Part shown: positions 2,750 to 20,596 of the stretch, in pieces
Layout: each line of letters begins with the position of its first letter
Numbering within the stretch: position 1 is the stretch's first letter
Source: an uncultured Candidatus Saccharibacteria bacterium
GTDB lineage: Bacteria; Patescibacteriota; JABMPQ01; JAQVVF01
DNA: 64,000 nucleotides
Assembly (NCBI GenBank): GCA_964574655.1
Contig: CAZNOH010000001.1
Span: forward strand, 137,852-201,851
Direction: 5' to 3'
Translations under genes and position numbers: made by a program
The notes under the pieces: model-generated
What the model saw: only the letters and a program-made list of their open reading frames with translations
Told to the model about the DNA's origin: nothing
The model's database searches: none

Positions 2750-2776
2750 GGTTGTTTAGAAAGTTAATATTTATAG

Positions 2777-2994: not shown

Positions 2995-5244
2995 ATGCAA
3001 AATAAAAATAAAATGATTCATCATTGTAGTTGTAATAAATGTATTTGTGGTGAAGCTGAAAAATTAAGTGTTAGTTGTGGTTGCGAATTGGAAGCAAAAC
3101 AATATGAATATGGTCTTGATAAAAAAATGAAGCATAAGGATCATAAGATGAATATGGACTCTAGTTCAACAGCTAATCAGGCAAAGCATGATATGTCTAA
3201 GATGAGCCATCCCTCCTTTGCTTCTGCTACGGAGGGCAGGCAAGATCATGAAATGGCAATGACAAATCCAATGATGGCCAAAGAGATGGAGGCAGATATG
3301 AAGCGCAGATTTTTTATCTCGCTTTTTTTGTCAATTCCGATTCTTCTTTATTCGCCTGTTGCCATTAATTTTTTTAAACTTAATTTACCGTCATTAATAC
3401 CGGTAAATTGGCTGTTATTTATTTTAACAACGCCAATTGTTTTTTGGGCCGGTTCAATTTTTATTATAGGCGCATATTATTCTCTCAAAAGTCGAAAATT
3501 AAATATGTCTGTTTTGATTGCAACTGGTGTTTTGGCGGCATATTTATTTAGCGTATTTTTAACTATTATAAATGGCGGAGAGACTTTTTATGAAGCGGCA
3601 GCGTTGTTGGTAACTTTTGTTTTGTTTGGGCATTGGATGGAGATGAAATCTCGGCGAGGTACTTCTGATTCTTTGCGGGCTCTTTTTGATTTGGTTCCGC
3701 CTCAAGCTAAAATTTTACGGAATGGAAAAGAAATTACTGTTCAAGTTAGTAAAGTAATAAAAGGAGACATTGTAGTGATTCACCCTGGCGATAAAATTCC
3801 TGTTGATGGTGAAATAATTGAGGGTGAAACAGTAATTGATGAGTCATTGGTTACTGGCGAATCTATTCCAGTTGAAAAAAAAGTAAAAGATAAAGTTATT
3901 GGCGGATCAATTAATCAAACTGGAGCAATAAAATTTAAGGCAGAAAAAGTTGGTAGTGAGACAGTTTTAGCTCAGATAATCAAATTAGTAGAGACTGCTC
4001 AAAATTCAAAAGCTCCAGGACAGAGAATTGCTGATAAGGCAGCTGGTTGGTTAGTTATCTTGGCAGTTGGTTCTGGTTTGGCAACTTTTTTGGGCTGGTA
4101 TTTTGTAGCTCAATCATCATTGTTTATTGCTTTAACTTTTGCGGTTTCAACTGTTGTGATTGCTTGTCCGGATGCATTGGGATTGGCAACGCCGACTGCG
4201 GTTGCAGTTGGCACTGGCATTGGAGCAAAACATAATATTTTGATCAAAGATGCTACAACATTGGAACAAGTTTCAAAAATTCAGGCGATTGTTCTGGATA
4301 AGACTGGTACTTTGACAGAAGGAAAGCCAAAAATGACTGATTTGAGAAGTTTTAACGGATTTACAGAAACTGATGTTTTGCTTTATGAAGCGAGCTTGGA
4401 AAGCGGATCAAATCATCCAGTTGCTAAAGCAATTGGTGATTCTGCAAAAGAAAAGAAAGTTTTGCTTATGCGTTTGAATAAGTTTGAGTCAATAGCTGGA
4501 TTTGGATTAGCTGGCATAGTTAACGGAAAAAATGCTTTGGCTGGAAAAGAACAATTATTGATAGATAAAAAAGTTGATACCTCAGTTGGAAAATTAGATC
4601 GAGATAAATTTTTTGATCAAGGCAAAACATTAAGTTTTTTAGCAATAGATGGCAAGCTTGCTGGAATAATTGCGGTTGCTGACACGATCAAGCCTACTGC
4701 AAAGCAAGCAATTAAAAATTTTAAAAAAATGAATATAGAGGTGGCGATGATTACTGGCGATCATAAAAAAGTTGCAGAAGCTGTTGGCAAAGAATTAAAT
4801 ATCGATCGTGTTTTTGCTGGAGTTGAGCCTTCAGATAAGGCGAAATATGTTAAAAAACTTCAAGATGAAAATAAATTTGTGGCAATGGTTGGAGATGGTA
4901 TAAATGATGCTCCAGCTTTAGCTCAATCTGATATTGGAATTGCAATTGGGGCAGGGACAGAAGTCGCAATTGAAACTGCCAAAGTTGTTTTGATGAAATC
5001 TGATCCATTTGATATTATTCGAGCGATAATTTTGAGCAAGGCAACAGTTACAAAAATGAAACAGAATCTTTTTTGGGCGGCAATTTATAATATTCTAGCA
5101 ATTCCTGTTGCAGCTGGAGTTTTTTATAATTCTTTCGGTATTTCTTTACGTCCAGAAATTTCAGCTTTGTTGATGTCTGCTTCTTCAATTATTGTGGCAA
5201 CTAATGCAGTATTATTGAAAAGAGTTGAGTCTAGATTAAAATAA
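2995..5244 (+). CDS. Heavy-metal (probably copper) P1B-type ATPase, CopB-like, with a Cys/His/Met-rich N-terminal metal-binding region. It has DKTGT, YN...P and MSASS motifs, but its TM6 motif is CPD instead of CPC/CPH.
   Basis: The ORF is 2983..5244 with a TTG-extended start; the ATG at 2995 is the likely real start. Motifs present are DKTGTLT, GDGINDAP, ACPDALGLATP, AAIYNILAIPVAAG and LMSASS. The N-terminus has CSCNKCICGE, SCGCE, HKDHKMNM and MTNPMMAKEMEADM. Confidence 0.85.
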   Translation: MQNKNKMIHHCSCNKCICGEAEKLSVSCGCELEAKQYEYGLDKKMKHKDHKMNMDSSSTANQAKHDMSKMSHPSFASATEGRQDHEMAMTNPMMAKEMEADMKRRFFISLFLSIPILLYSPVAINFFKLNLPSLIPVNWLLFILTTPIVFWAGSIFIIGAYYSLKSRKLNMSVLIATGVLAAYLFSVFLTIINGGETFYEAAALLVTFVLFGHWMEMKSRRGTSDSLRALFDLVPPQAKILRNGKEITVQVSKVIKGDIVVIHPGDKIPVDGEIIEGETVIDESLVTGESIPVEKKVKDKVIGGSINQTGAIKFKAEKVGSETVLAQIIKLVETAQNSKAPGQRIADKAAGWLVILAVGSGLATFLGWYFVAQSSLFIALTFAVSTVVIACPDALGLATPTAVAVGTGIGAKHNILIKDATTLEQVSKIQAIVLDKTGTLTEGKPKMTDLRSFNGFTETDVLLYEASLESGSNHPVAKAIGDSAKEKKVLLMRLNKFESIAGFGLAGIVNGKNALAGKEQLLIDKKVDTSVGKLDRDKFFDQGKTLSFLAIDGKLAGIIAVADTIKPTAKQAIKNFKKMNIEVAMITGDHKKVAEAVGKELNIDRVFAGVEPSDKAKYVKKLQDENKFVAMVGDGINDAPALAQSDIGIAIGAGTEVAIETAKVVLMKSDPFDIIRAIILSKATVTKMKQNLFWAAIYNILAIPVAAGVFYNSFGISLRPEISALLMSASSIIVATNAVLLKRVESRLK

Positions 5245-5328
5245 AATAATTTTTATCCGCCTTTGTTAAAGCTTCCACCTTCGCTAAAGCTTCGGTGGAC
5301 AAGTCGGCGGACGAGGGAGGTGATAAAT

Positions 5329-5463
5329 ATGATGGATTATAATATGATGAGTGGAGTTAATGGGGGAAATATGATGTTTTTTGCTTGGACTATATATATT
5401 TTGATTATTGTTTTAATTATTTTGGCAATTATAGCGTTGTGGAAATATATAAATAAAAAATAA
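5329..5463 (+). CDS. Small Met-rich membrane peptide (MMDYNMMSGVNGGNMMFF + one transmembrane helix) downstream of the Cu-ATPase; a possible Cu(I)-binding accessory peptide.
   Basis: The supplied ORF 5263..5463 is over-extended through a hairpin element. The real start is probably the ATG at 5329, preceded by the Shine-Dalgarno sequence GAGGGAGG (5313-5320). Confidence 0.35.
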   Translation: MMDYNMMSGVNGGNMMFFAWTIYILIIVLIILAIIALWKYINKK

Positions 5464-5467
5464 AAAT

Positions 5468-5722
5468 ATGATAAATTTAAAACATTTAAGTAAAGTTGTT
5501 GTTTTATGGATGAGCCTTGTTTATACTGTTTGTTACGCAGGAGTGGCAATTTATCCTCCGATTAGAGGATTATTTATGAAATATTCTTTGCATGCTGACA
5601 TGGTTTTTGTTTCTAATTTTTTCAGTATTGGTTATTTTATTTCTGGTTTGATTATTTGGAATGTGGTTGGATTAGCTGGAGCCGGGTTGTTTGCTGTGTT
5701 GTTTAATAAAATTAAAAGTTAG
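5468..5722 (+). CDS. Hypothetical small membrane protein (two or three transmembrane helices).
   Basis: 84-aa ORF with hydrophobic segments, 4 nt after the previous small ORF. Confidence 0.35.
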   Translation: MINLKHLSKVVVLWMSLVYTVCYAGVAIYPPIRGLFMKYSLHADMVFVSNFFSIGYFISGLIIWNVVGLAGAGLFAVLFNKIKS

Positions 5723-5789
5723 ATAAAGAGTAGAAAAAATTATTATCATTTTTTTTGACAAATTTTGTATTTCTGGTAAAATAAACTTG

Positions 5790-6052
5790 TAAATTTTAAA
5801 AACGTTTGAGTCTGGTTATCGCCAGATGATGTTGGTGAAAGAAAGCTTGGAAGTTTCTACCTTGCCTCTGCCTTCGTTACGCTTTGGCAGGCAGGCATGG
5901 CAAGGGTCGAACCTCCGCCATGGGCGGAGTAGAAGTTCTGAGTAATTAGATTCATTCGGGTAAGCCCGTTATAGCTTGAAATAAGTTACCGCCTTCACTC
6001 TTCACTTCGTTCAGAGCTTCGGCGGTTAAAAGAGGTGGTACCGCGAATTATT
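5790..6052 (+). ncRNA. Candidate structured non-coding RNA or hairpin-element cluster. It is a GC-rich stretch with three GC-rich hairpin elements (5868-5895, 5912-5929, 5988-6026) plus other stem-loops, and ends at an intrinsic terminator.
   Basis: There is no ORF. GC content is locally higher than its surroundings. Nested helices include CCTTGCC...GGCAAGG, CTCCGCC-atg-GGCGGAG and CGGG-taag-CCCG. It is preceded by a weak promoter-like TTGACA-N15-TAAAAT (5756-5782). I recognised no RNase P, SRP or tmRNA signature. Confidence 0.25.
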
Positions 6053-6081
6053 CGCCCTCTAAATTTTTTAGGGCGTTTTTT
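6053..6081 (+). terminator. Rho-independent terminator (CGCCCT-loop-AGGGCG + T6).
   Basis: Perfect 6-bp GC stem followed by TTTTTT. Confidence 0.6.
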
Positions 6082-6159
6082 AATGGTAATAAAATGATTA
6101 TTGATGTGCAGACTTTTATAATTAAATAAAAAAACCACGTTAGTGGTTAAGTAAGTGCA

Positions 6160-6393
6160 TTATTTCTTTTGAGGAATGATCTGGAATTGAGAAATGAAAA
6201 GGTTGGAAAAATAGAAACAGAACAAACCGTTGATTAAGCAAAAAATGGTTAAAACTTCCATAATAAGAATATTCGTAGAAAGGAAAATCATGACTATTGC
6301 ATATAGCACAATTGCGAAATGTATTAGAGAAGCTGTTAAAAGAAACATCGTTATTGCGACTATCCAAGGATGTTTTTTGAGTGTGTTTCTCAT
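6160..6393 (-). CDS. Hypothetical small membrane protein (77 aa, two transmembrane helices).
   Basis: Hydrophobic ORF in an otherwise empty region; coding status uncertain. Confidence 0.25.
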   Translation of the reverse strand: MRNTLKKHPWIVAITMFLLTASLIHFAIVLYAIVMIFLSTNILIMEVLTIFCLINGLFCFYFSNLFISQFQIIPQKK

Positions 6394-6549
6394 TTCTCGT
6401 CCCCTTTTTTGTTGAAAGAACTATATAAATTTTAGCATATTAATTAATAATTGTCAATAGAATCGCGAATATGCACAAATTTATCACAAATAGCACTAAT
6501 AGTCTATATGTGAAATTTGTGCAAGATTCGTGCAAATTCGAGAAATTTT

Positions 6550-9500
6550 ATGTTTAAAAAAGTAGATCCAAAACAAGATTTTATAAAATTAGAGCATGAT
6601 GTTCTTGGTTTTTGGAATGAGAACAGAATGTTTTATAAATTGCAGAATAAAAATCATGGCAAAGAGCCTTGGTCTTTTATTGATGGTCCAATTACAGCAA
6701 ATAATCCAATGGGAGTCCATCATGCGTGGGGCAGAACATTGAAAGATGTTTTTCAGCGTTATAAGGCGATGCAAGGATTTGATCAACGATGGCAAAATGG
6801 TTTTGATTGCCAAGGTCTTTGGGTTGAGGTTGAAGTTGAAAAAGATTTGGGATTTAATTCTAAAAAAGAAATTGAAAAATTCGGTTTGGATAATTTTTCT
6901 AAAGCTTGCAAAGAAAGAATTGAAAAATATTCCGAAATTCAGACTGAACAATCAAAAAGACTGGGACAGTGGATGGATTGGAGAAATTCTTATTATACAT
7001 ATACAGATGATAATATTGAGGCAATCTGGACTTTTTTAGAAAAATGCAAAAGAAATGGCTGGCTATACAAGGGATATTCAGTAATGCCTTGGTGTACAAG
7101 ATGCGGGACTGCTTTGTCTCAACATGAATTATCAGATGATGGCTGGAAAGAAGTTGTTCATCAGGCAGTTTATATTAAATTAAAAAGAAAAAGCGAAGAA
7201 GCTGAAATTAATGAATATTTCTTGGTTTGGACAACAACTCCTTGGACATTGCCAGCAAATGTTGCTTTGGCTGTAAATCCAAAAGTAAAATATGTCAGAG
7301 TAATGAAGGACGGCGAGACCTATATCTTAGCTAAGGCTTTAGTTTCGAAAGTTTTGGGTGAAGCAGAAATTGTAGAGGAAGTTGATGGAAAAAGTCTTTT
7401 GGGTCTGCATTATGAAGGACCTTTTGATGAATTGCCTGCACAAACAGGAGTAGATCACAAAGTAATTTCATGGGAAGATGTTTCTGATGCTGAAGGTACT
7501 GGCATTGTTCATATTGCGCCTGGTTGTGGTGAAGAAGATTATCAGCTTTCTAAAACTAATGATTTGAAAATTATTGCTCCAATTGATGAATTTGGCAACT
7601 ACGTTGATGGTTTCGACTGGTTGAACAAAAAAAATGTTCACGGAATTAAGAATGAGATTTTTTCTTCTTTGAAAGAAAAAGGTAATTTTTTGAAAATTGC
7701 TGATATTAAACATCGCTATCCATTTTGCTGGAGATGCAAAGAAGAATTAGTATTTAGAGCTGTTTCAGAATGGTTTATTGATGTTTCTGAAGTCAGAGAG
7801 CCAATGAGGAAGGCTGCAGAAAAAGTTGGTTGGTTGCCTGAATCAGTTGGCAAGAGAATGCAAGATTGGCTTGATAATATGGGAGATTGGGTAATTTCTC
7901 GAAAAAGATATTGGGGTTTGCCATTGCCTTTTTATGAATGTGAATGCGGTGAAGTAACTGCTGTAGAGTCACGAAAAGAGCTTTTAGAATTATCAAATCA
8001 ACAATCAACAAATTTGATATTAGCAAGGCATGGAAGAAGCGAAGGAAATGTTTTAGGAATTACTGATGGAAAAATGCCAGGAACAAATTTAGATTGGAAA
8101 GGCGAGGAAGAAGCCGATCAATTGGCGAAACAGATGAAAGAAAGAGGAGTTGATATTGTTTATACTTCACCTTTCTCTCGTTGTAAAAAAACAGCTGAAA
8201 AAGTGGCTAAATTATGCAATGCAGAATTAGTTGAAGATGAAAGGTTGAGAGAACAGGCTTTTGGTAATTGGAATGATAAGAAAGTTTTTGAAGTTGAAAA
8301 AGAACTTACTGATTTTTATGAGGAAAATGATGATAAAAAGGCTGGTGAGACAGGTGAAAGTATGAAAGAACTTTTTGCAAGATGTCAGGATTTTTATCAT
8401 GAAATTTTGAAAAAGCATAATGGCCAGACTGTTGTTGTAGTTACTCATGATGGAATTTTGGCAAATCTAGAAAAAGTAATTGTGAATAATAAAAAAGTTA
8501 GAAATGTTATGAAAGTTACAGCTCAAAATGCTAAAGCCCATGAAATTAATATTTTAGGGAATGGCCCCAGCCATGAAGGCGGGGCAAGCAAAATTATTCC
8601 TGAATTACATCGTCCTTGGATTGATGAACTAAAAATCATTTGTCCAAAATGTAAAAAGGAAGTATCGAGAATTAAGGATGTTGGTGATTGTTGGTTGGAT
8701 GCTGGAATCGTGCCTTTTTCAACATTAAAATATTTTAGCAATAAAGAATATTGGGCAAAATGGTTTCCTGCTGAATTTGTTTGTGAAATGCGTTCTCAAG
8801 TAAGATTGTGGTTCTATTCAATGCTTTTTATGGCTGTAACGTTGGAAGATGAGACGCCATATAAACAAGTGCTAGCTTATGAAGAAGTAAGAGATGAAAA
8901 AGGCAAGCCAATGCATAAGTCTTCTGGCAATGCGATCTGGTTTGATGAAGCAGCAGAAAAAATGGGAGCTGATGTGATGAGATGGATGTACTGTGTCCAA
9001 AATCCAGCTTACAACTTAAGATTTGGCTATAGATCCGCAGAAGCAATTAGACGCAAATTAATTTTGTTATGGAACGTTTATTCTTTCTTTGTGTTATATG
9101 CGAACATTGATAATTTTAAGCCTGTTGAAAATAATAAATTAGTACTGAACAATAAACTTGATCAGTGGATTATTTCAGCTTTGAATGCATTGATTGCTGA
9201 ATGCAATAAAGAAATGGATAGATTTAATGCTCAACGCGTAATGGAAAAATGCGAGAAGTTTTTGGATGATTTAGCAAATTGGTATGTAAGAAGATCAAGA
9301 AGGAGATTCTGGAAGAGTGAAAATGATCAGGATAAGAATCAAGCCTATCAAACGTTGTATACTGTTTTGACAAATTTTGTGAAATTAATTGCACCTGTTG
9401 TGCCATTTTTGTCTGAAGAAATGTATCAGAACTTGGAGCGTCAGAGCGTCGGAGCTTCGGAGATCGGAAGCGTCCACTTGTGTGATTATCCGAAGGCTGA

Positions 9501-10092
9501 TGTAAACTTGATTGATGAAAAGTTGAATATGGAGATGGATTTGGTGAGAACAATTGCGAAATTAGGTTTAGCTGCACGTGCAAAAGCACAAATGAAAGCA
9601 CGACAGCCGTTAGCTAAGTTGAAAGTTAAAAGTTTAAAGTTAAAAGTTACGGACGATTTAATTGCTATTTTAAAAGACGAATTAAATGTGAAAGTTATTG
9701 AATTTGTGGAAAAGATTGGTTTTGAGGTTGAAGAAAAGAAAAACAAGAAAAAGTATATTTCTAAAGAAAAAGGCTTTGAAGTTGAAGGTGATGGTAATGT
9801 TGTTATTGCTTTACAGACTGAATTAACTGAAGAACTAGAATTAGAAGGTATGGCTCGTGAAGTTGTCCGACAGATTCAATCAATGCGTAAAGAAGCTGAT
9901 TATCAGATTGCAGACCGTATTAAAGTTTGTTTTGAATTAGGTGAAAAAGGTAAAAAAGTTTGCCATCAGTTTGGTGATTATATTAAAAAAGAAACTTTGG
10001 CAACTGAATTAGAAGAAGGTAAAAAAGAAGTTGATTTGGGCAAAGAGGCGAAATTAGGCAAGGAAGAAGGATGGATTGGAGTGAAGAAATAG
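6550..10092 (+). CDS. ileS: Isoleucyl-tRNA synthetase (type 2, Thermus-like) with a histidine-phosphatase/phosphoglycerate-mutase-like domain of about 170 aa inserted between the two zinc-knuckle Cys pairs (CECG ... CPKC).
   Basis: Motifs seen are WTTTPWTLPAN (CP1 editing), WVISRKRYWGLPLPF, PMHKSSGN (the KMSKS equivalent), and a HIGH region GVHHAWG that aligns to T. thermophilus GLPHVGHA. The insert has LARHGRSEGN (the RHG catalytic motif) ... VVVTHDGIL (the second catalytic His). The likely start is the ATG at 6550 (MFKKVDPKQ); the supplied ORF begins at 6517. Confidence 0.9.
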   Translation: MFKKVDPKQDFIKLEHDVLGFWNENRMFYKLQNKNHGKEPWSFIDGPITANNPMGVHHAWGRTLKDVFQRYKAMQGFDQRWQNGFDCQGLWVEVEVEKDLGFNSKKEIEKFGLDNFSKACKERIEKYSEIQTEQSKRLGQWMDWRNSYYTYTDDNIEAIWTFLEKCKRNGWLYKGYSVMPWCTRCGTALSQHELSDDGWKEVVHQAVYIKLKRKSEEAEINEYFLVWTTTPWTLPANVALAVNPKVKYVRVMKDGETYILAKALVSKVLGEAEIVEEVDGKSLLGLHYEGPFDELPAQTGVDHKVISWEDVSDAEGTGIVHIAPGCGEEDYQLSKTNDLKIIAPIDEFGNYVDGFDWLNKKNVHGIKNEIFSSLKEKGNFLKIADIKHRYPFCWRCKEELVFRAVSEWFIDVSEVREPMRKAAEKVGWLPESVGKRMQDWLDNMGDWVISRKRYWGLPLPFYECECGEVTAVESRKELLELSNQQSTNLILARHGRSEGNVLGITDGKMPGTNLDWKGEEEADQLAKQMKERGVDIVYTSPFSRCKKTAEKVAKLCNAELVEDERLREQAFGNWNDKKVFEVEKELTDFYEENDDKKAGETGESMKELFARCQDFYHEILKKHNGQTVVVVTHDGILANLEKVIVNNKKVRNVMKVTAQNAKAHEINILGNGPSHEGGASKIIPELHRPWIDELKIICPKCKKEVSRIKDVGDCWLDAGIVPFSTLKYFSNKEYWAKWFPAEFVCEMRSQVRLWFYSMLFMAVTLEDETPYKQVLAYEEVRDEKGKPMHKSSGNAIWFDEAAEKMGADVMRWMYCVQNPAYNLRFGYRSAEAIRRKLILLWNVYSFFVLYANIDNFKPVENNKLVLNNKLDQWIISALNALIAECNKEMDRFNAQRVMEKCEKFLDDLANWYVRRSRRRFWKSENDQDKNQAYQTLYTVLTNFVKLIAPVVPFLSEEMYQNLERQSVGASEIGSVHLCDYPKADVNLIDEKLNMEMDLVRTIAKLGLAARAKAQMKARQPLAKLKVKSLKLKVTDDLIAILKDELNVKVIEFVEKIGFEVEEKKNKKKYISKEKGFEVEGDGNVVIALQTELTEELELEGMAREVVRQIQSMRKEADYQIADRIKVCFELGEKGKKVCHQFGDYIKKETLATELEEGKKEVDLGKEAKLGKEEGWIGVKK

Positions 10093-10120
10093 TTGAACAA
10101 ATAGTTTGAACAGAAAAAAG

Positions 10121-10145
10121 ATAGGCGAAAATGCCTATTTTTTTT
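10121..10145 (+). terminator. ileS intrinsic terminator (ATAGGC-gaaaat-GCCTAT + T7).
   Basis: Perfect 6-bp stem followed by a T-run. Confidence 0.65.
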
Positions 10146-10172
10146 GACATTTTGTGTTTAAAAAGGTAAAAT
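10144..10172 (+). promoter_or_regulatory. Canonical sigma70-type promoter: TTGACA, 17-nt spacer, TAAAAT. A strong Shine-Dalgarno sequence AGGAGGAG follows upstream of the 10259 ATG.
   Basis: I read it directly; spacer length counted as 17 nt. Confidence 0.55.
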
Positions 10173-10258
10173 ATTATTATAAAGGTATGGATTGTTCGTT
10201 AAAATTTAATTGACTATCCAATCGATTTCTTTTCATCCCCAAGAACCAGGAGGAGAAG

Positions 10259-12889
10259 ATGCGAACAGAAAGATGGTTGATGATAGGTTTAATGTCTGTT
10301 TCTTTGATTTTTTGCACTTGCGTTATTGAACAAGCTGAAGTAGAAAATGAAGAGGTTGCAAATCGAGATATTGGCGGCAACAGTCCTAGTTTTAAGATTC
10401 CTCTCCCGAAAGGATTTGAATGGAAAGTCACGCAATCTTGGGGCGAGCATGCTGAACAATGTGATATTGATTATCCTCCAGCGTCTGGAGAAGATTATTT
10501 TGTAGAATCTTCTCATAATACTAGTTCTTATTGCGAATATGGTTGGGATTTTAGTTTACCAGGTTCAACTGATAGCGGAAAACCAGTTTTAGCTTCTGGC
10601 TTGGGCACTCTTAAATATATTGGGGATGGGACAAGTTCTGGACAATGCAATGGTTGGGGATACTGTGCGATCATTGATCATCAATACAAAAAAACTATTG
10701 ATGGCTTAGAGCATAATGTTTGTTCACGTTACGCACATATGATTATTGATTCGGGATCTCAGTTAGAAATAGGTCAGGATATTTGTCAGGGATTAAAAAT
10801 AGGAGAAATCGGAGATACTGATTCACCTGGAGCGTATCATCTTCATTTTCAGTTTGAAGATTGTGATAATCGGAAGCCATTGCGGATGGGATTTACAGAT
10901 GGAAATGGAGTTCCTCGATGTGAAGAATATTTGACGCTAACCAATGATGAAGTAGAAAGCTGTGGTGATTCTCCTGACGATGTTTTTGGTGATGCTGAAT
11001 TGCCAGAAGGTGGCTGGGTGAATGCAGGTTGTGGATCTTTGCCGGATTGTCCGTTAATTCCAAATTGTAATAGAGAAAAAGGAACTCATCTATTTTCTGA
11101 TTACATGATTGTTGATGATGTATTATTAGCTGCTGGATATCTTTATGGCGAATGTGCTTTGGATGGTAAAGCTGATGGCGGGTTACATCCAAATGATGAC
11201 ATTTCACGAGCAGAAACTTTAAAAGTTGCATTGAATTTGTTTGGTTTGGCGAGTGACAATTGTGGTGATTCAGAGAGCTTTACAGATGTTAGTCCTGATG
11301 ATTGGTTTTATGATTTGGTGAATTGTGCCCAGAAGTATGGAATCATTGAAAGCGTGGGCGGATCTTTTTATCCCAGTCATGCAGCGACTTTTGCTGAAGC
11401 GGCAAAAGTTGTTGTCGAAGCAGCGAATCAGGCTGATGTTATCGAAATAAAAAATGCGCATGAGTTAGGATTTAGCGGTTCGTCAGATTCTCATTGGTCA
11501 TTGAATTATTTTGCCACTCTTTATTATTATGGAGGAATCGATTTGGGTTATTTGCCAACTGCAATTTTGGAGCTACCAGTCAAGAGGAAGGATTTTTTTA
11601 TTATGGCAGCTTCTCTTTCGCCTTGTTTTTGCGGAAATGTTAATTGTAGTTCTGGCTGTGTTTGTGATCAGAAAGTTAGCGCTTGTGTTGATCCTGATGA
11701 TGTTTCGGATGATACAGGTGGTGGAGATGATGTAGAAGAAGAACTTGAGGAAAAAGAATTTGATTTGCAAATTGATTGCTTTGTTGATGTTGAGCATACA
11801 AGATGTGAAGATTCTGGTACAATTTTGTATGTAAAATGCGATTTGGAAAATAATGGCGATGAGGTTGTGAAGCTAAATAATCTTGTAATGTTTATGTCTA
11901 GTTCCTCTGAACAATGTCAAGTAACTGATCAAGATTTACATAGCGGTGTTGGAACTCAACATGTTGAGTCAGGAGAAATTAGAGATCTCAATGGACATTT
12001 TGAAATAACTTGTACAGATCAACCAAGAGATAGTGAATTTGAAGTCTATTTTGATTTGTATGAAAGGATTGATGGGGAAGTGACACAATACGAAGATATT
12101 TTGACAGCTGAAATATTTGTTGCTGATGAACCTTTTGAATTGTGCGAGGAAGATACGTGTACTCTATTGACGTGCCGTGTTATGGGATTTAGTTGCGGGT
12201 CTTACAGTGATAATTGCGGAGGCATAATAAGTTGTGGGAATTGTGAGCAAGACTTTGACTGCGTGGATGGCAGATGTCAGCAACGAGAAGTTTGTGAACC
12301 AGTGATCTGTCAAATATTAGGATATCAATGTGGAAATTACAACAACAATTGTGGAGGTATGATTAATTGTGGAAATTGTGGAAATGGTTTTTCTTGTCAA
12401 AATGGTGCATGCGTTGGAATACAAGAAGGTGTTTTTGATCAAGACCAATGCAATTTGTGTCCTTATACAACACCATGCGATGAAAATAATCATTGTCAGG
12501 CGGAAGGGTGGTACGATGATTGGGTATGTGAAAATGGATATGTCACAACTATTGGATCTCCAGGAGGCAGAGTAGAAATTGAAACTTCAGGCGGTCAACA
12601 AAGATTTTACCAATTTGATTTAAATCCGGCGATGCTATTTACTTTTAGTTGTGATGAATTGCCAGTGGCAATTTGGATTGAAACTGGTCCAGAATCGTTA
12701 AGTGTTGAAATTATGGATCCAAGTTTGCCATATTTTTCTTTTATTTCCCCACCATGTGAATGTGGTGTTTCAATTTATCCAAGGGGGATTGAAATGACTG
12801 CAAGAGGTATTTCTCTTTTGGTCAATAATGATGCAGAACATTGGTTGATTCGAGTGCCGATGAAAGATTATCGATCTTTTTTTGAGTAA
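10259..12889 (+). CDS. Secreted cell-surface protein. It has a signal peptide, an M23 (LytM-type) metallopeptidase domain (HxxxD ... GAYHLHFQFED), SLH-like domain(s) (FTDVSPDDWFYDLVNCAQKYGIIESVGGSFYPSHAATFAEAAKVV), an acidic linker, and C-terminal Cys-rich tandem repeats (CGSYSDNCGGIISCGNCEQDFDCVDGRCQ and CGNYNNNCGGMINCGNCGNGFSCQNGAC).
   Basis: 876-aa ORF with a hydrophobic N-terminus. The M23 HLH motif and the SLH consensus (F.DV...W...GI..G.F.P...T.AEAAK) were recognised by eye. Confidence 0.7.
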   Translation: MRTERWLMIGLMSVSLIFCTCVIEQAEVENEEVANRDIGGNSPSFKIPLPKGFEWKVTQSWGEHAEQCDIDYPPASGEDYFVESSHNTSSYCEYGWDFSLPGSTDSGKPVLASGLGTLKYIGDGTSSGQCNGWGYCAIIDHQYKKTIDGLEHNVCSRYAHMIIDSGSQLEIGQDICQGLKIGEIGDTDSPGAYHLHFQFEDCDNRKPLRMGFTDGNGVPRCEEYLTLTNDEVESCGDSPDDVFGDAELPEGGWVNAGCGSLPDCPLIPNCNREKGTHLFSDYMIVDDVLLAAGYLYGECALDGKADGGLHPNDDISRAETLKVALNLFGLASDNCGDSESFTDVSPDDWFYDLVNCAQKYGIIESVGGSFYPSHAATFAEAAKVVVEAANQADVIEIKNAHELGFSGSSDSHWSLNYFATLYYYGGIDLGYLPTAILELPVKRKDFFIMAASLSPCFCGNVNCSSGCVCDQKVSACVDPDDVSDDTGGGDDVEEELEEKEFDLQIDCFVDVEHTRCEDSGTILYVKCDLENNGDEVVKLNNLVMFMSSSSEQCQVTDQDLHSGVGTQHVESGEIRDLNGHFEITCTDQPRDSEFEVYFDLYERIDGEVTQYEDILTAEIFVADEPFELCEEDTCTLLTCRVMGFSCGSYSDNCGGIISCGNCEQDFDCVDGRCQQREVCEPVICQILGYQCGNYNNNCGGMINCGNCGNGFSCQNGACVGIQEGVFDQDQCNLCPYTTPCDENNHCQAEGWYDDWVCENGYVTTIGSPGGRVEIETSGGQQRFYQFDLNPAMLFTFSCDELPVAIWIETGPESLSVEIMDPSLPYFSFISPPCECGVSIYPRGIEMTARGISLLVNNDAEHWLIRVPMKDYRSFFE

Positions 12890-12912
12890 GCGATTTTATA
12901 TCGCTTTTTTTA
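12889..12912 (+). terminator. Intrinsic terminator (AGCGAT-tttat-ATCGCT + T7).
   Basis: Perfect 6-bp stem followed by a T-run, immediately after the stop codon. Confidence 0.6.
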
Positions 12913-13071
12913 TTTGTAAAATAATGATAAATCAATGCGAACAAATAATTTGAACAGAAAAAGATAGGCAAATATTCGTCTATCTTTTGTTTTGTATTGA
13001 CTTTTTATAGAAATAAGGTAGAGTAATTAGTCTTGGATTTTCAGGATGCCTAGAAGGAGGAGGAGAAGACA

Positions 13072-13503
13072 ATGAAAAGATCTCCATGCAGTTGGTGTTG
13101 TGGTGAAAGTTCTTTAAACATTGGAGCGGGATCATTTCGTGATTTTGACTTTGATTATTCTTATGGTCTTCCGATTTGTGGTGGCTGTGGTGGTTTAGGA
13201 ATTCAAGTTGATGATGAGGAGTTCAGGCGACTTACGAAAGAGATTATTAGATTGCGATTTGAGTATTGCCCTACTGGTGATATGCACTTGTGTCCAGACT
13301 TGCCTTTTATTGTTAGATTGCAAAAATATAAGGCTTTGCAAGCTGTTGTAGTTGAAATTTTTGGGAAATTTGCTGAATCTGGTAATGAATGTTATGCAAA
13401 AGATCTTATTGGTAGTGGCTTTGCTTGGGGGATTGAGCAATTAGAGAAGGCGTCTCAAGTCTATTGTGAGGTCTTTGAACGTGAACCGGAGAATGAATCA
13501 TGA
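13072..13503 (+). CDS. Hypothetical Cys-rich protein (143 aa; CSWCCGE, CGGCGG at the N-terminus), preceded by the strong Shine-Dalgarno sequence AAGGAGGAGGAGAAG.
   Basis: The ORF has an extended Shine-Dalgarno site. Its upstream about 140 bp is a near-duplicate of the cassette upstream of 10259. Confidence 0.5.
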   Translation: MKRSPCSWCCGESSLNIGAGSFRDFDFDYSYGLPICGGCGGLGIQVDDEEFRRLTKEIIRLRFEYCPTGDMHLCPDLPFIVRLQKYKALQAVVVEIFGKFAESGNECYAKDLIGSGFAWGIEQLEKASQVYCEVFEREPENES

Positions 13504-13521
13504 GAAGTTAAAGCAGTTCGG

Positions 13522-13884
13522 TTGGCTTGGTTGGAGTTTTGGAAAGGAAATTTTGAAGATGGTAAGAGATTGTTTTTGGCTGTTTTAAGAGATTTTCCTG
13601 AATCGAGTATTGTTAGCTGTGATTATGCTAACTATCTGTTGCTTTTCGAACGAAATCATGTCGAGGCTCTGAAATATTTTGAACAAGCAGTGAGTCAAAA
13701 ACCGAGAAAAGCTGCTCATTATTATAATTTGGCAAAATTGTTGTTCAAAAAAGAACAGTTTTCAAGAATTGATGAATTGCTTGGTGAAGCTTTAGTATGT
13801 GAAGATTCTTCTTCTTTGAATGATTGCTTTGAGGAAATTACATTGATGAGGGAAAAAGCAAGGTCGCGAGCACATTTGTCTTAG
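13522..13884 (+). CDS. Hypothetical protein (120 aa, helical/TPR-like). It is in the same frame as the 13072 ORF, separated from it only by a TGA at 13501-13503, and has no ATG start (TTG).
   Basis: 13072 and 13522 are both in frame 1. Translating across the TGA gives ...ENES*EVKAVRLAWLEFW... Confidence 0.35.
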   Translation: MAWLEFWKGNFEDGKRLFLAVLRDFPESSIVSCDYANYLLLFERNHVEALKYFEQAVSQKPRKAAHYYNLAKLLFKKEQFSRIDELLGEALVCEDSSSLNDCFEEITLMREKARSRAHLS

Positions 13885-13885
13885 T

Positions 13886-13912
13886 AACTATCCATATGGA
13901 TAGTTTTTTTAT
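13886..13912 (+). terminator. Intrinsic terminator (20-nt perfect palindrome AACTATCCATATGGATAGTT + T7).
   Basis: I read it directly. Confidence 0.65.
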
Positions 13913-13924
13913 ACCTATGCTATA

Positions 13925-14707
13925 ATGTTTTTGTCTATGGCAACATATAAAACAAAAGGTATTATTATTAAAAGAGTGAATTATAAAGAAGCAGATAAAA
14001 TCCTGACTATTTTTACGGCGAATATGGGCAAGATTACAGCTTTGGCAAAAGGAGTTAGAAAGACAACTTCGAAATTAGGCGGACATTTGGAATTGTTTTG
14101 TAGCGTGGATTTGATTTTGGCTGAAGGAAAAGCTTTTGATATTGTGACGTCTGTAGAAAAAAATTGTCATTTTAAAAACTTATGTTTTGATTTAGATAGA
14201 ACTTCTCATGCTTATTATGTTTGTGAATTGGTTGATAAATTTACTCATGAAGATTACAAAGATACAAGGTTATATAATTTATTGTTTTTAGCTTTGGATT
14301 CGATAAATCAAGAAATATCTTTGGATAAAAAACTAGATTTGATTTTGAGCGGTTTTAAAATCAAGCTTTTAAAAATTCTTGGTTTTTTGCCTGATTTAAA
14401 AAAATGTGTTCATTGTGGCAAGAGGGATCAAGAAAATTATTTCAGCTCTTTTTTGGGTGGTTTGATTTGTAAGAGTTGCTTTGATATGGATCGTGAGAGT
14501 TTGAAAATTTCTTTGGAATGTTTAAAGATCTTAAATTTTTTGGAAGATAATAATTTTGAAAATATAAAGAGACTGAAAATTGATGATAAGTTTAGTAAAG
14601 AAGTGGAAAGAGTGTTGGATCAATTTATTAGATTCAATCTAGATAGGGAATGTAAAGCTAAGAGTTTGTTATGCGATGTAAAAAGGCTATGTTTGACAAC
14701 AAATTAA
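13925..14707 (+). CDS. recO: DNA repair protein RecO (N-terminal OB fold plus C-terminal Cys4 zinc finger CVHCGK...CKSC).
   Basis: MATYKTKGIIIKRVNYKEADKILTIF...GGHLELF is RecO-like. The start may be the ATG at 13940. Confidence 0.75.
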   Translation: MFLSMATYKTKGIIIKRVNYKEADKILTIFTANMGKITALAKGVRKTTSKLGGHLELFCSVDLILAEGKAFDIVTSVEKNCHFKNLCFDLDRTSHAYYVCELVDKFTHEDYKDTRLYNLLFLALDSINQEISLDKKLDLILSGFKIKLLKILGFLPDLKKCVHCGKRDQENYFSSFLGGLICKSCFDMDRESLKISLECLKILNFLEDNNFENIKRLKIDDKFSKEVERVLDQFIRFNLDRECKAKSLLCDVKRLCLTTN

Positions 14708-14721
14708 ATTAAACAAAATTA

Positions 14722-15321
14722 ATGAAAATAATAAAATTTTTTATAATTGCATTATTAATATTGTGTCCGAAGTTTTCTTTCGCCGAAGATTTTCCGGAAA
14801 AGAGCGATAAGTTAGTTAATGATTATTCTAAAATGTTAAATAGTATTGATAGTATAGAACAAAAGCTTGTTGATTTTGAGAGAGATAATCAAGCTCGGAT
14901 GGTGATAGTTGTTTTGCCTGTTGCAGGTGATTTAAACGAATATGCGGATCAATTATTCACGCAATGGAATGTTGGTGGCAGAGAAGATAAAGGAATTTTG
15001 TTTCTGATTAGTTCAGAAAAAAAAGAAGCAGCAATGAAATTGAGTTATGGTTTGAGTGAAAATATAAAACAAGAGCAAATTGATGAATTAATTTCTAAAG
15101 GAATAAATCCAGCATTATTAGAGGGTAATTATTCTAATGCTGTTGATTTAGGAGTGAAAAGTCTGGAAAAGATTTTAAAAGGAGAGTATAATGGCGTACA
15201 GTCAAAAGCTAGCAATAATTGGGTGTTTGGCGTAATATTTTTATTTGTTGTGTTGTTTATGATTATTGCTTCAGCTTATGGAAGACAGGAGAGACGGAGA
15301 ATAATTTATAATAAAGAATAA
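14722..15321 (+). CDS. TPM-domain protein (DUF477/YgcG-like phosphatase fold), with a signal peptide and a C-terminal transmembrane helix.
   Basis: N-terminal hydrophobic signal, TPM-like core (YSKMLNSIDS...RMVIVVL...GILFLIS), and a C-terminal transmembrane helix plus RRR tail. Confidence 0.65.
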   Translation: MKIIKFFIIALLILCPKFSFAEDFPEKSDKLVNDYSKMLNSIDSIEQKLVDFERDNQARMVIVVLPVAGDLNEYADQLFTQWNVGGREDKGILFLISSEKKEAAMKLSYGLSENIKQEQIDELISKGINPALLEGNYSNAVDLGVKSLEKILKGEYNGVQSKASNNWVFGVIFLFVVLFMIIASAYGRQERRRIIYNKE

Positions 15322-16451
15322 TGAGTATTTTTAAGTTAGTTGGTAAAAAAAACAAGGCCAGATTAGGAAAGTTAAAAACATTACATGGAGAAATCGAAAC
15401 TCCTTTTTTTATGTCGATTGCAACTTCTGGATTTATTAAAGGTCTGACAACTGATGAAATGAGGGAAATCAACGCTCCAGTTATTTTAAGTAATACATAT
15501 CATCTGATGCTTAGGCCTGGAGAAAAATTGATTAAAAGAGCTGGTGGATTGCATGAATTTATGAATTGGGAAAAGCCTATTTTGACTGATTCTGGCGGTT
15601 ATCAAGTTTTTAGTTTGGCTAAGTTTAGAAAAATTTTAGATTCTGGAGTGAAATTTAAATCTGGCATTGATGGAAAAGAGTATTTTTTAACGCCTAGAAA
15701 AGCAATTCAAATTCAGCAAGATTTAGGTTCGGATATTATGATGGTATTAGATGAATGCGTGGAAAATCCAGCTAGTTATAATGTTGCATTAGAAGCTGTT
15801 GAGAGAACGACAAGATGGGCGAAATTATGCCGAAAAATTTTCAATGACCAATTTTCAATTTCCAATAAATTTTCAATGACCAATTTTCAAATAAATCGAC
15901 CTCTGTTGTTTGGAATTGTACAAGGTTCGTTGTATAAAGATTTGCGAAAGAAAAGTGCTGATGACTTAATAAAGATTGGTTTTGATGGATATGCGATTGG
16001 AGGATTGGCAGTTGGTGAAGGAAAGTCTGAAATGTATAAAATGGTTGAATATTCAGCTAATCTATTACCAGAAGATAAACCTAGATATTTGATGGGTGTT
16101 GGATATCCAGAAGATATTGTTAAGGCAGTATCTTTGGGTATTGATATGTTTGATTGTGTTATTCCAACAAGAAATGCAAGGCATGGGATGTTATTTACTG
16201 GTTTGAAAAACATTGATTTGAAAAAAGGAACTGTAAAATATAAAGCATTAAATATTACTAATAAGGAATTTAGAGAAGATTTTAAGCCAGTTGATAAAAA
16301 TTGCGATTGCGAATTATGTAAAAATTATTCAAGAAGTTATTTGAGACATTTGTTTATGTCGAAAAGTTTTCTGGGACAAAGACTGGCAACCTTGCATAAT
16401 TTGAGATTTTATGTAAGATTGATGGAGGCGTTGAGAGAGGAAGTACTTTAA
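15321..16451 (+). CDS. tgt: Queuine tRNA-ribosyltransferase (tRNA-guanine transglycosylase).
   Basis: ETPFFM, LTDSGGYQVFSL and the Zn site CDCELC...H. It contains an internal 21-nt direct repeat (15837-15857 and 15869-15889) that stays in frame. Confidence 0.9.
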   Translation: MSIFKLVGKKNKARLGKLKTLHGEIETPFFMSIATSGFIKGLTTDEMREINAPVILSNTYHLMLRPGEKLIKRAGGLHEFMNWEKPILTDSGGYQVFSLAKFRKILDSGVKFKSGIDGKEYFLTPRKAIQIQQDLGSDIMMVLDECVENPASYNVALEAVERTTRWAKLCRKIFNDQFSISNKFSMTNFQINRPLLFGIVQGSLYKDLRKKSADDLIKIGFDGYAIGGLAVGEGKSEMYKMVEYSANLLPEDKPRYLMGVGYPEDIVKAVSLGIDMFDCVIPTRNARHGMLFTGLKNIDLKKGTVKYKALNITNKEFREDFKPVDKNCDCELCKNYSRSYLRHLFMSKSFLGQRLATLHNLRFYVRLMEALREEVL

Positions 16452-16507
16452 ACAAAGATCTGCCTTTGTTTCTCTGCGAGAGACTTTGGCGGACAAGGGA
16501 GGAGAGG

Positions 16508-17875
16508 ATGTCGGACAAATTTGATGTTGTGATCGTTGGTGCTGGACCTGCGGGTTTGTTTGCAGCTTATGAGTTGGTTACGGTAAACTCTGGCTTGAAT
16601 GTTTGTTTGATTGATCGTGGTCCTTCAATTAAGAATCGTACCAGCAGGGATGTTATGTGCGGTGTAGGAGGAACGGGTTTGTTTTCTGACGTAAAACTTC
16701 ATGTTTCAGCTGTATTGTCGCACGAAATGATGTTGAGACTGGTGCCTGTACAAGAATATCAAGAAGTTGTTGATTATGTAGATTCTATTTTTACTGAATA
16801 TGGTGCTCCGGATAGTTATTTTCCTAGAGAAGAAGATGAAGAAAAAGTAAGACAATTGGTAGATGAAGCTGGGCTTTGTGGAATTAAATTGGTTTCGCGG
16901 AAAGTGAGACATGTTGGATCTGACAATTCACCAAGAATTATTGCAAGGTTTGAAGATTTCTTAGTTGCTTCTGGTGTGACATTGAGAACAAATTGTCATG
17001 TTGAGAGAATATTGGTTGAGAATGGTAGTTGTGTTGGTGTTCTAACGAAAGATAATGAAGAGATATTTGCTTCCTATGTTTTAATTGCTCCTGGAAGATT
17101 GGGATCAGCTTGGTTGCAAAAATTAGCAGTACATTTCAATCTAGGCCACAATTATGAAAAGGTTTTGATTGGGGCTAGAGTCGAATTTCCAGCGGCAGTT
17201 ATGCAACGTCATTCCGATGTAATGTATGAACCTATCTTCTTGATTCGGACGCCAACTTATGATGATCAAGTTAGAACATTTTGTCCATGTCCGAGAGGTA
17301 AGGTAAGTATGGAGAGTTACGATGGTTATATCGGAGTGAATGGTTTTTCAGAATCAAGCTATGCATCAGGTAATTCTAACTTTGCTTTTTTAACAGAAGT
17401 GCAATTGGTTAAACCAGTCGAGAATACAACTGATTATGCTGAAATGATGGCAAGAATGGCGACAACTTTAGGTGGCGGGAAACCAATTTTGCAAAGGCTA
17501 GCTGATCTGAGATGCAGTAGAAGGAGTACTTGGGAGCGGATAAGTCATAGTTTTGTTGAACCAACTTTGAGAGAGGTAACACCAGGAGATATAGCTATGG
17601 CGTTGTCAGGAAGAATAGTTGTAAATTTGTTGGAAGGATTAGAAATCTTGGATCGGATTTTACCTGGAATAAATAATGGATCAACATTACTTTATGTGCC
17701 TGAATTAAAGAATCGTTCTTCAGTGATACAAACTGATTCATTTTTAGCTACAGCCATGCCAGGACTTTTTATGGCTGGCGAAGGGGCTGGTGTTTCTGGC
17801 AACATTGTTGGAGCAGCGGCAACAGGAGTGATTGCAGCTAGAGGAATTTTGAAGCAAGGAGGAAAGAATGAATGA
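16508..17875 (+). CDS. FAD-dependent oxidoreductase (COG2509-like NAD(FAD)-utilising dehydrogenase).
   Basis: N-terminal Rossmann motif VVIVGAGPAGLFAA and C-terminal MAGEGAGVSGNIVGAAATGVIAA. The supplied ORF 16466 is over-extended through the 5' UTR hairpin; the ATG at 16508 is preceded by the Shine-Dalgarno sequence GGGAGGAG. Confidence 0.7.
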   Translation: MSDKFDVVIVGAGPAGLFAAYELVTVNSGLNVCLIDRGPSIKNRTSRDVMCGVGGTGLFSDVKLHVSAVLSHEMMLRLVPVQEYQEVVDYVDSIFTEYGAPDSYFPREEDEEKVRQLVDEAGLCGIKLVSRKVRHVGSDNSPRIIARFEDFLVASGVTLRTNCHVERILVENGSCVGVLTKDNEEIFASYVLIAPGRLGSAWLQKLAVHFNLGHNYEKVLIGARVEFPAAVMQRHSDVMYEPIFLIRTPTYDDQVRTFCPCPRGKVSMESYDGYIGVNGFSESSYASGNSNFAFLTEVQLVKPVENTTDYAEMMARMATTLGGGKPILQRLADLRCSRRSTWERISHSFVEPTLREVTPGDIAMALSGRIVVNLLEGLEILDRILPGINNGSTLLYVPELKNRSSVIQTDSFLATAMPGLFMAGEGAGVSGNIVGAAATGVIAARGILKQGGKNE

Positions 17876-18035
17876 TTACTTGACTTGGCATGAATATTCA
17901 AGGGGATGTTTGTCTGTATTGGTTTATATTGGATTGATCATTATATTTACACATATGCCTTATATACGAGCATATCTTGATGAGCGAGAGGACAGGAAGA
18001 TTCGAAGAATGATTGAAAAGATTAATGGAAAATAA
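17868..18035 (+). CDS. Possible small single-transmembrane protein (55 aa) whose start overlaps the stop of the FAD oxidoreductase (ATGAATGA).
   Basis: My manual translation gives MNDYLTWHEYSRGCLSVLVYIGLIIIFTHMPYIRAYLDEREDRKIRRMIEKINGK. It is below the length cutoff of the ORF track. Confidence 0.25.
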   Translation: MNDYLTWHEYSRGCLSVLVYIGLIIIFTHMPYIRAYLDEREDRKIRRMIEKINGK

Positions 18036-18111
18036 ATTGCACATTTAAGATCTTATTGAAGGTCTTATTTTTTTATGGTAAAATTTAAAAGCAAAAATAA
18101 TTTTAAATTAT

Positions 18112-19458: not shown

Positions 19459-19533
19459 GTTAGAAAGTTTAAAGTTATCCGCCTTCGTCCTGCTGGACTT
19501 TGGCGGACAGGTAAAGTTTATAAAGTATCTAAG

Positions 19534-19557
19534 ACCGCTCTTGCTAGCGGTTTTTTG
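19534..19557 (+). terminator. glyQS intrinsic terminator (ACCGCT-cttgct-AGCGGT + T6).
   Basis: I read it directly. The hairpin element at 19478-19512 lies just upstream. Confidence 0.65.
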
Positions 19558-19645
19558 TTAGACATTAATTATTATTTTTAGTATAATTTGTGTATATTCG
19601 CCTACGTCCTGTGGGACTTTGGCGGACAAAGTAATTTTAAAATAT

Positions 19646-20575: not shown

Positions 20576-20596
20576 TTTTTATTAAATTATTAAATC

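Follow-up and report, generated by a model that had tools for sequence, protein, structure and literature searches.

The question raised by this locus is what a large exported protein that joins an M23 peptidase domain to SLH (surface-layer homology) repeats and a Cys-rich tail does in the envelope of the bacterium that makes it. The gene, referred to here as the M23-SLH gene and its product as the query, lies in a stretch of 64,000 nucleotides (the window) from an uncultured bacterium deposited as Candidatus Saccharibacteria (GenBank assembly GCA_964574655.1, contig CAZNOH010000001.1, positions 137,852 to 201,851 of the forward strand). A preliminary description of the sequence had proposed an envelope-anchored lytic or attachment factor that might be relevant to an episymbiont. 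Our analysis points, with moderate confidence, to a cell-envelope peptidoglycan endopeptidase (autolysin) that acts on the bacterium's own wall and is held there at two points. The broad annotation of M23 plus SLH is already assigned automatically in the databases. What is new is the non-canonical layout of zinc ligands in the family, a modular architecture with two probable anchors in a lineage of Patescibacteria, and the place of the Cys-rich tail in a large, cross-domain repeat family that is uncatalogued and structurally unsolved. A literature search found no description of either the Cys repeat or the M23-SLH family.

The M23 domain and its predicted zinc site

The open reading frame (ORF) and the modules of its proximal half are as follows.

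10259..12889, + strand: M23-SLH ORF, 876 aa, ATG start, TAA stop (12887-12889)
10259..10321 (aa 1-21), + strand: signal peptide, lipoprotein-type in the family (alignment, Cys21 conservation)
10376..10903 (aa 40-215), + strand: disulfide-rich M23 (LytM-type) metallopeptidase domain with an N-terminal extension (Pfam, profile against PDB, conservation)
11006..11068 (aa 250-270), + strand: Cys knot GGWxxAxCGSLPxCPLIPNC (C258, C264, C270) between M23 and SLH (conservation)
11090..11614 (aa 278-452), + strand: three SLH repeats (Pfam, Sap alignment)
11618..11701 (aa 454-481), + strand: conserved six-Cys cluster SPCFCGNVxCxxGCxCDQxxxACxDPxD

In Pfam, Peptidase_M23 (PF01551) matched aa 104-201 with 32.0 bits against a curated cut-off of 28.7, and SLH (PF00395) scored 35.6 bits with the whole protein and 44.1 bits with the segment against a cut-off of 20.8, so both domains named in the preliminary description lie above their cut-offs. 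A profile of the family matched the structures of ShyA (E = 4.5e-15), DipM (6.4e-15), LytM (5e-8) and lysostaphin (3e-6) in the PDB, and also that of zoocin A. The closest sequence relationship is therefore to the M23B DD-endopeptidases (Vibrio cholerae ShyA, Escherichia coli MepM, Staphylococcus aureus LytM and lysostaphin). Like them, the family has the Asp, a catalytic His in Y-x-H-[LM], the HLHF (HxH) motif and a catalytic domain joined to a wall-binding module. It differs in the loss of the HxxxD His, in about 10 conserved Cys in the M23 domain, in two additional conserved His on an N-terminal extension, in a lipoprotein-type signal and in the use of SLH as the wall-binding module, where M23B endopeptidases use LysM or SH3b.

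Residues were counted in a MAFFT alignment of the query and 78 homologues (79 sequences). The HxxxD motif that had been read in the sequence is absent. The position of its first His is occupied by E93 in the query (EYGWD, E93-Y-G-W-D97) and is unconstrained in the family, with K in 52/79, R in 8/79, E in 6/79 and T, V, L, I, D or H in the remainder. The rest of the site is retained: D97 in 78/79 sequences, and H160 (YAHM), H194 and H196 in all 79, H194-L-H196 being the HLHFQ motif that had been recognised correctly. H160 and H194-L-H196 align with the Y-x-HL and HLH of ShyA and DipM. Upstream, all sequences that extend over this region have H86 (where it seemed to be missing in a few, the His was displaced by 1-2 alignment columns), and H64 (75/79) and H141 are conserved too. 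The spacing is H86-x10-D97 in the query and x10-13 across the family.

A comparable layout is known from subfamily M23A (LasA, Lysobacter beta-lytic protease, pseudoalterin), in which the first His lies far upstream. In the beta-lytic protease the residues are His22, Asp36, His82, His121 and His123, with the His 13 residues upstream of the Asp (PMC8715609), which compares with H86-x10-D97 here. We propose that H86 stands in for the missing HxxxD His as a zinc ligand with M23A-like spacing. The family-wide arrangement of zinc ligands, non-canonical with the rest of the site invariant, appears to be new. Further likenesses to M23A are a P-x-x-x-G-Y-x-W strand common to the family and the N-termini of LasA and pseudoalterin, and a Cys-rich, presumably disulfide-bonded domain (LasA has four Cys). 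The similarity is nevertheless weaker than that to M23B (E = 0.51 for LasA, using a sequence identical to PDB 3it5), and M23A enzymes are free secreted proteases, unlike the wall-anchored family described here. They also need a long N-terminal propeptide for folding (PMC8715609), and a propeptide of this type is absent from the family, as the first conserved motif of the domain, FKIPLP (aa 45), follows the signal-peptide Cys after no more than about 20-25 residues.

Two features of the M23 domain set the query apart. The Cys pair C65/C81 of the family is replaced by A65 (10451..10453) and F81 (10499..10501), which is probably the joint loss of one disulfide, and a 9-aa insert, YKKTIDGLE (aa 143-151, 10685..10711), is unique to the query. 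A family in which the HxxxD motif has been replaced throughout while the remainder of the site is invariant offers a natural test case for the rewiring of LAS-type zinc sites. It is also a warning that the motif alone cannot decide whether an M23 domain is active or inactive.

The signal peptide and the SLH module

The N-terminus of the query consists of MRTER, a hydrophobic run and C19/C21, in agreement with the signal peptide first proposed, and in the family it takes a lipoprotein-type form. When the end of the signal peptide was tested against the lipobox pattern [LVI][ASTVI][GAS]-C, the aligned Cys21 was found in at least 90% of the family sequences, with A, S or G at -1 in 71/77.

The second candidate anchor is the SLH module. 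Positions 266-443 of the family profile align with residues 20-193 of Bacillus anthracis Sap, the full length of a three-repeat SLH domain (E = 2.7e-12), and Sap was also matched by phmmer. An SLH region was therefore rightly proposed, but it contains three repeats rather than one clear repeat and one partial one. TRAE-type motifs are the ligand-binding motifs of SLH domains. The corresponding motifs here are SRAE in SLH1 (316-319; TRAE in 56/79 of the family), TFAE in SLH2 (377-380) and KRKD in SLH3 (442-445), where R443 is invariant. The Cys knot and the six-Cys cluster on either side of the repeats had no match in Pfam.

Three SLH repeats with TRAE-type motifs are likewise found in SLH proteins of Firmicutes such as B. 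anthracis Sap and Paenibacillus alvei SpaA. The SLH-anchored murein hydrolases of Bacillus, among them B. anthracis BslO, are analogous wall-parked enzymes that follow the same principle, a wall hydrolase parked on a wall polymer. The present family differs in that its SLH module is internal, between two conserved Cys clusters, in that the enzyme is an M23 peptidase and not a glucosaminidase or amidase, and in that the host is of Patescibacteria type.

Family distribution and genomic context

The 78 homologues share 32-49% identity with the query (E <= 1e-78) and nearly all combine M23 and SLH. In species-representative genomes the gene was located at 33 loci, labelled Peregrinibacteria, Peribacteria, Gracilibacteria or Patescibacteria. 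Judged by these homologues, the family does not extend beyond Peregrinibacteria, Peribacteria and Gracilibacteria, and the source bacterium of the window would be of Peregrinibacteria/Gracilibacteria type. Five contigs with the gene sit in bins labelled as other lineages, namely L004, L021 and L034 (Nitrospirota), L015 (Dehalococcoidaceae) and L022 (Flavobacteriales). These are probably binning errors in public metagenome-assembled genomes; the linked leucyl-tRNA synthetase (LeuRS) gene described next is present too on L004, L021 and L034.

In 19/33 related loci the M23-SLH gene is preceded, at a distance of 1-2 kb and in the same orientation, by a LeuRS gene, and this arrangement was also seen in L001. 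This linkage identifies the M23-SLH gene as a core gene, and it is usually single-copy in each related genome. The gene is intact in the 78 homologues, and it is therefore neither absent from nor disrupted in sister genomes. In the window, the upstream neighbour is the isoleucyl-tRNA synthetase (IleRS) gene and LeuRS is found 15 kb downstream. The window as a whole is a housekeeping region that contains genes for four aminoacyl-tRNA synthetases, RecO, TGT, GlmS, SHMT, ParAB, RelA/SpoT, TopA, DprA, Mfd, Pth and Der, and its ORFs are long under the standard genetic code. It contains neither a paralogue of the M23-SLH gene nor another SLH protein. These findings define a lineage-specific core envelope protein for Peregrinibacteria, Peribacteria and Gracilibacteria, groups in which the envelope is poorly understood and dependence on other cells has been inferred mainly from such surface proteins.

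The distal region and the Cys-rich repeat

Neither Pfam nor NCBIfam returned a match for any module past the SLH region, which is made up as follows.

11702..11761 (aa 482-501), + strand: acidic low-complexity linker, 0 to ~60 aa long in the family
11762..12142 (aa 502-628), + strand: first immunoglobulin (Ig)-like/E-set-type beta-sandwich, in ~55-70% of homologues (AlphaFold, predicted local distance difference test (pLDDT) 82-97)
12158..12292 (aa 634-678), + strand: Cys unit 1, 8 Cys, short helix and two beta-hairpins (repeat hidden Markov model (HMM), E = 1.2e-14, match aa 634-675)
12293..12427 (aa 679-723), + strand: Cys unit 2, 8 Cys, short helix and two beta-hairpins (repeat HMM, E = 1.1e-15)
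12428..12526 (aa 724-756), + strand: low-confidence Cys-containing connector (pLDDT 47-66, weak repeat-HMM matches only)
12527..12886 (aa 757-876), + strand: family-specific C-terminal beta-sandwich, in ~85% of homologues

The poly-acidic linker noted earlier was found at aa 484-501 (DDTGGGDDVEEELEEKEF). An AlphaFold model of aa 497-876 had a mean pLDDT of 87.3 and the order sandwich, two Cys units, sandwich. When this three-module model was compared using Foldseek, only generic Ig-like/E-set sandwiches were returned, namely ApaG (1xvs, template modelling (TM) score 0.58 on the target), the FixG-related 2r39 and PCuAC, and the viral library BFVD also gave only generic sandwiches. Archaeal Fusexin1 headed the PDB matches of the C-terminal model (E = 1e-4), but this weak, partial match was set aside as not meaningful (TM 0.20, root mean square deviation 10 Å).

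The C-terminal sandwich carries the motifs WxC(D/E)xxGY, SPGG, FxCxDLP and, near the C-terminus, LxR(I/V)P. Its HMM matched only one (P0129) of 148 unrelated proteins with the Cys repeat, and a word-index protein search with a 27-sequence profile of the domain found nothing. So far, on these comparisons, the domain appears specific to the M23-SLH family, and as a conserved terminal module it is the part most likely to make a specific contact. The connector that precedes it is possibly a degenerate third Cys unit. Overall, the distal stalk is modular and variable, and its parts have been shuffled between homologues.

The Cys-rich repeats of the preliminary description are present as two tandem units, though each is ~45 aa with 8 Cys and not ~30 aa. 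The pattern is C-x4-C-x6-CG-x5-CGG-x3-CG-x-C-x5-C-x4-C and the HMM consensus is CTPKTCASLGAECGTVSDGCGGTLDCGTCPAGETCGNGKCV. In the model the units have a pLDDT of ~88-94 (90.3 when modelled alone). The repeat is optional in the M23-SLH family, where the HMM matched 21/79 members with 1-6 units each. By regular expression, the long form was found in 9/78 homologues and a shorter variant, C.P.C.GkeCGpDyCGGfCG.C, in 36/78. Cys residues are not confined to the tail, as the 53 Cys of the query (6.05% of residues) are distributed along the entire protein.

A word-index protein search with the 94-aa Cys segment was empty, and matches were obtained only with an exhaustive HMMER search. In this search, aa 629-722 were compared using phmmer with 1.84 billion cluster representatives (clusters at 50% identity), which yielded 1,256 representatives at E <= 1e-3, 347 at <= 1e-10 and 18 at <= 1e-30. 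The repeat HMM, iterated on the best 148 matches, detected 1,132 units in 149 proteins (the 148 and the query), with a median of 7 and a maximum of 22 per protein and a period of 41-50 aa. The few matches with a named source came from Myxococcota, Myxococcales, Bradymonadaceae/Lujinxingiaceae and one Candidatus Diapherotrites archaeon (DPANN), in which the 8-Cys repeat lies in a PKD-domain protein (P0096). The presence of the repeat in this archaeon as well as in bacteria suggests either transfer of the module between domains of life or a very early origin. Lipoprotein-like signals were found at the start of many of the proteins, and the domains alongside the repeat include S8 subtilase, GH123, PKD, ConA-like lectin and CBM9. 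The Cys units are most plausibly rigid, disulfide-pinned spacers, because elsewhere up to 22 copies lie between enzyme and binding domains.

The units had no Pfam or NCBIfam model (the Cys segment was searched in Pfam, with none at E <= 10, and the whole protein in NCBIfam). TIGR04201 (Myxo_Cys_RPT), PF13948/TIGR02232 and the Pfam EGF families did not match them, and a link to TIGR04201 was rejected since its single sub-threshold match, in P0086, falls outside the units. Large secreted Cys-rich proteins with weak myxobacterial similarity were noted earlier in Peribacteria (PMC4736985). The present repeat is most abundant in Myxococcota, but its consensus differs from the curated Myxococcus cysteine-rich repeats (TIGR02232/PF13948 and TIGR04201), neither of which matches it. 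In searches of the PDB with the isolated two-unit model, Foldseek gave nothing better than E = 1.3 (TM <= 0.29), the returns being eukaryotic EGF-like, furin-like and TNFR-type arrays at noise level. Repeats of these types are also ~40-45 aa, with disulfide-pinned beta-hairpins in tandem, rod-like spacers, but the present unit contains 8 Cys, includes a short helix that they lack and gave no significant fold match to them. The suggestion that the Cys module is novel holds in so far as neither Pfam nor NCBIfam has a model for it and its structure has yet to be solved. It is, however, neither rare nor specific to Patescibacteria, and with over 1,200 clusters (50% identity) and up to 22 copies per protein it is worthwhile for a Pfam entry and for structure determination.

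Function of the M23-SLH protein

If the query acts as an autolysin, it would be exported by the Sec pathway and, like other members of the family, lipidated at Cys21, so that its N-terminus would be tethered on the outer side of the cytoplasmic membrane, as the family lipobox suggests. Because the M23 domain starts ~20 residues past this lipid anchor, it would lie at the inner face of the bacterium's own murein. There the disulfide-stabilised domain would cut peptide cross-links, with D97 and H196 in the zinc site and H160 and H194 as catalytic residues, as their conservation in the alignment predicts. H86 may take the place of the HxxxD His, as in the long His-to-Asp spacing of M23A. The three SLH repeats, given their homology and TRAE-type motifs, would bind a wall polysaccharide non-covalently and fix the protein in the wall. 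The linker, the Ig-like sandwich, the two Cys units and the C-terminal sandwich would then form an outward stalk, with a length and composition that vary between species, and the terminal sandwich may contact a surface partner. The membrane-side polarity of the catalytic domain, taken together with the synteny of a core gene, favours an autolysin that serves growth or daughter-cell separation.

Several observations weigh against this interpretation. The canonical first zinc ligand is missing in the whole family, and support for an M23A-like replacement is uneven: comparison of LasA with the family by hhalign gave a probability of 92.9% in which only the catalytic core aligned, and the N-terminal HMM match to LasA, in which either H86 or H64 might correspond to LasA His23, is weak (3.8 bits, a score reached in 3/200 shuffles). 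The lipobox of the query is atypical (F-C-T-C21), with a Thr at -1 that is found in only 2/77 sequences, and this may permit cleavage by signal peptidase I and release from the membrane. No csaB (the pathway for a pyruvylated secondary cell-wall polymer), lgt or lspA was found among the ~40 window ORFs scanned. A variable, Cys-rich distal region is equally expected of a host-contact protein.

Part of this evidence would also fit a factor directed at a host or prey, in which the C-terminal sandwich and the Cys repeats bind a partner cell and the M23 domain breaches its wall. The predatory Myxococcota and Bradymonadales have the Cys repeat in abundance in their secreted proteins, beside proteases, glycosidases and lectins, and a DPANN archaeon has it too. 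Shuffling of distal modules among homologues fits such a role, as would release of the query from the membrane. A role in attachment has been proposed for large Cys-rich extracellular proteins of Peribacteria (PMC4736985), and predatory relatives are thought to aim secreted murein hydrolases at their hosts (PMC8080830). However, the catalytic domain is membrane-proximal, inside the SLH anchor, and would face away from a partner cell if the protein is anchored. In addition, the gene belongs to a syntenic core, lies among housekeeping genes and is usually single-copy in related genomes, and no secretion-system, toxin or immunity gene adjoins it. We consider a host-directed role unlikely, though it deserves to be kept in view; of the lytic or attachment factor first suggested, the secreted, envelope-anchored combination of M23 and SLH stands and the episymbiotic, host-directed part is weakened. 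Less probable again is an inactive LytM-type scaffold or activator similar to EnvC, NlpD or DipM, that binds peptidoglycan or activates another hydrolase. Such a protein would account for loss of the HxxxD His throughout the family. The best PDB matches include DipM, a LytM factor that is inactive, and the best NCBIfam match, far below threshold, is the amidase activator ActS. Degenerate LytM factors typically lack several catalytic or ligand residues, whereas the present family has lost a single position out of five: D97 is retained in 78/79 sequences and H160, H194 and H196 in all, and there is an extra upstream His that is universal. No amidase or FtsEX gene adjoins the M23-SLH gene.

The locus might also be an artefact of contaminating DNA, a recent horizontal gain or a decaying gene. 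At 0.383, the GC content of the M23-SLH gene exceeds the ORF mean of 0.334 (standard deviation 0.031), a duplicated ~35-nt intergenic block brackets it, and IleRS replaces the LeuRS linkage of relatives. The earlier remark that the gene is GC-richer than its neighbours is thus correct, but weakly so. It ranks fifth among 46 ORFs, four further ORFs in the window being equally or more GC-rich, and its GC content at third codon positions (GC3, 0.234) is ordinary for the window (0.20-0.32 in the other GC-rich ORFs). The excess is due to Gly, Cys, Asp and Ala codons, that is to amino-acid composition, and a foreign origin on grounds of GC content was rejected. The frame is intact, with a promoter, a Shine-Dalgarno sequence and a terminator, the catalytic and structural residues are all conserved, and the homologues all belong to one lineage. 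An artefact is accordingly highly improbable, and contamination, horizontal transfer and a pseudogene are essentially excluded.

Two bolder readings can also be drawn. The 8-Cys unit would be a new disulfide-rich fold common to predatory or host-dependent microbes of different domains of life (Myxococcota, Bradymonadales, Peregrinibacteria/Gracilibacteria and DPANN archaea), whose extracellular enzymes would use it for adhesion or as a rigid stalk, and the M23-SLH protein would span the wall, its surface end sensing or binding a partner cell while the M23 domain, with a zinc site intermediate between M23A and M23B, remodels the wall locally. We rate these readings as improbable, close to the inactive scaffold.

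Translation start and transcription signals

The M23-SLH ORF is real and forms its own transcription unit. The signals around it are listed below.

10114..10145, + strand: terminator-like hairpin and T-run (14-pair stem, T8 tail) that closes the upstream IleRS gene
10144..10172, + strand: putative sigma-70-like promoter TTGACA-N17-TAAAAT (11/12), the top match in the 3.2 kb scanned; a consensus match only
10248..10253, + strand: Shine-Dalgarno AGGAGG, 5 nt ahead of the ATG at 10259 (sequence)
12888..12906, + strand: terminator-like hairpin and T-run, starting inside the TAA stop codon of the M23-SLH gene

A database protein (P0001) is identical to the ORF but has only 865 aa, as it starts at Met12 and excludes aa 1-11 (10259..10291). 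This start would drop the charged n-region MRTER. The 876-aa start is taken to be correct because the AGGAGG, described from the outset as a strong site, is positioned before the first ATG and because the charged n-region is needed.

A near-identical block of ~35 nt is found in both spacers of the gene, at 10094..10127 and 12937..12969 (GAACAAATA[G/A]TTTGAACAG(A)AAAAAGATAGGC), and continues into a terminator-like hairpin. The two spacers also have in common the ribosome-binding block AGGAGGAGAAGA, at 10248..10258 and ~13056..13067. The duplicated spacer block could be a copied regulatory or terminator cassette, or the footprint of a rearrangement that parted the gene from LeuRS.

Neighbouring genes

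The ORF directly downstream (13072..13503, + strand, 143 aa) has the upstream cassette of the M23-SLH gene and is the most Cys-rich in the window (6.3%), with the motifs CSWCCG and CGGCGG. Its product matches nothing in Pfam and lacks an obvious signal peptide.

Two synthetases in the window contain inserted hydrolase domains. In IleRS (6517..10092, + strand, 1,191 aa) a complete His_Phos_1 domain is inserted in the catalytic core (aa 500-683, ~8014..8565, E = 3.8e-37) and includes the RHG motif LILARHGRSEGN. The second is LeuRS (27664..31116, + strand, 1,150 aa), which has an alpha/beta-hydrolase domain (Ser_hydrolase, PF06821) before the editing domain (aa 263-435, ~28450..28968, E = 1.3e-11). 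As the LeuRS homologues in related loci are ~800 aa, this insert is possibly lineage-specific. A 504-aa ORF at 23799..25313 that appeared to be a second gene linked to the M23-SLH gene was rejected, as the match was a cross-match between methionyl-tRNA synthetase and LeuRS.

At the start of the window, a minus-strand gene (843..2468) encodes a fusion of a heavy-metal-associated domain, a DsbD/CcdA-type thiol-disulfide membrane transporter and a cupredoxin-like domain. Its divergent neighbour is a P-type ATPase gene (2983..5244, + strand). Given the many Cys-rich exported proteins, the pair may bear on extracytoplasmic redox or copper handling.

GC skew is strongly positive (0.2-0.4) across most of the window (1..64000) and falls to ~0-0.1 from 44 to 57 kb. 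The genes turn to the minus strand near 43.6 kb, right after parA/parB (41906..43628), in this low-skew stretch.

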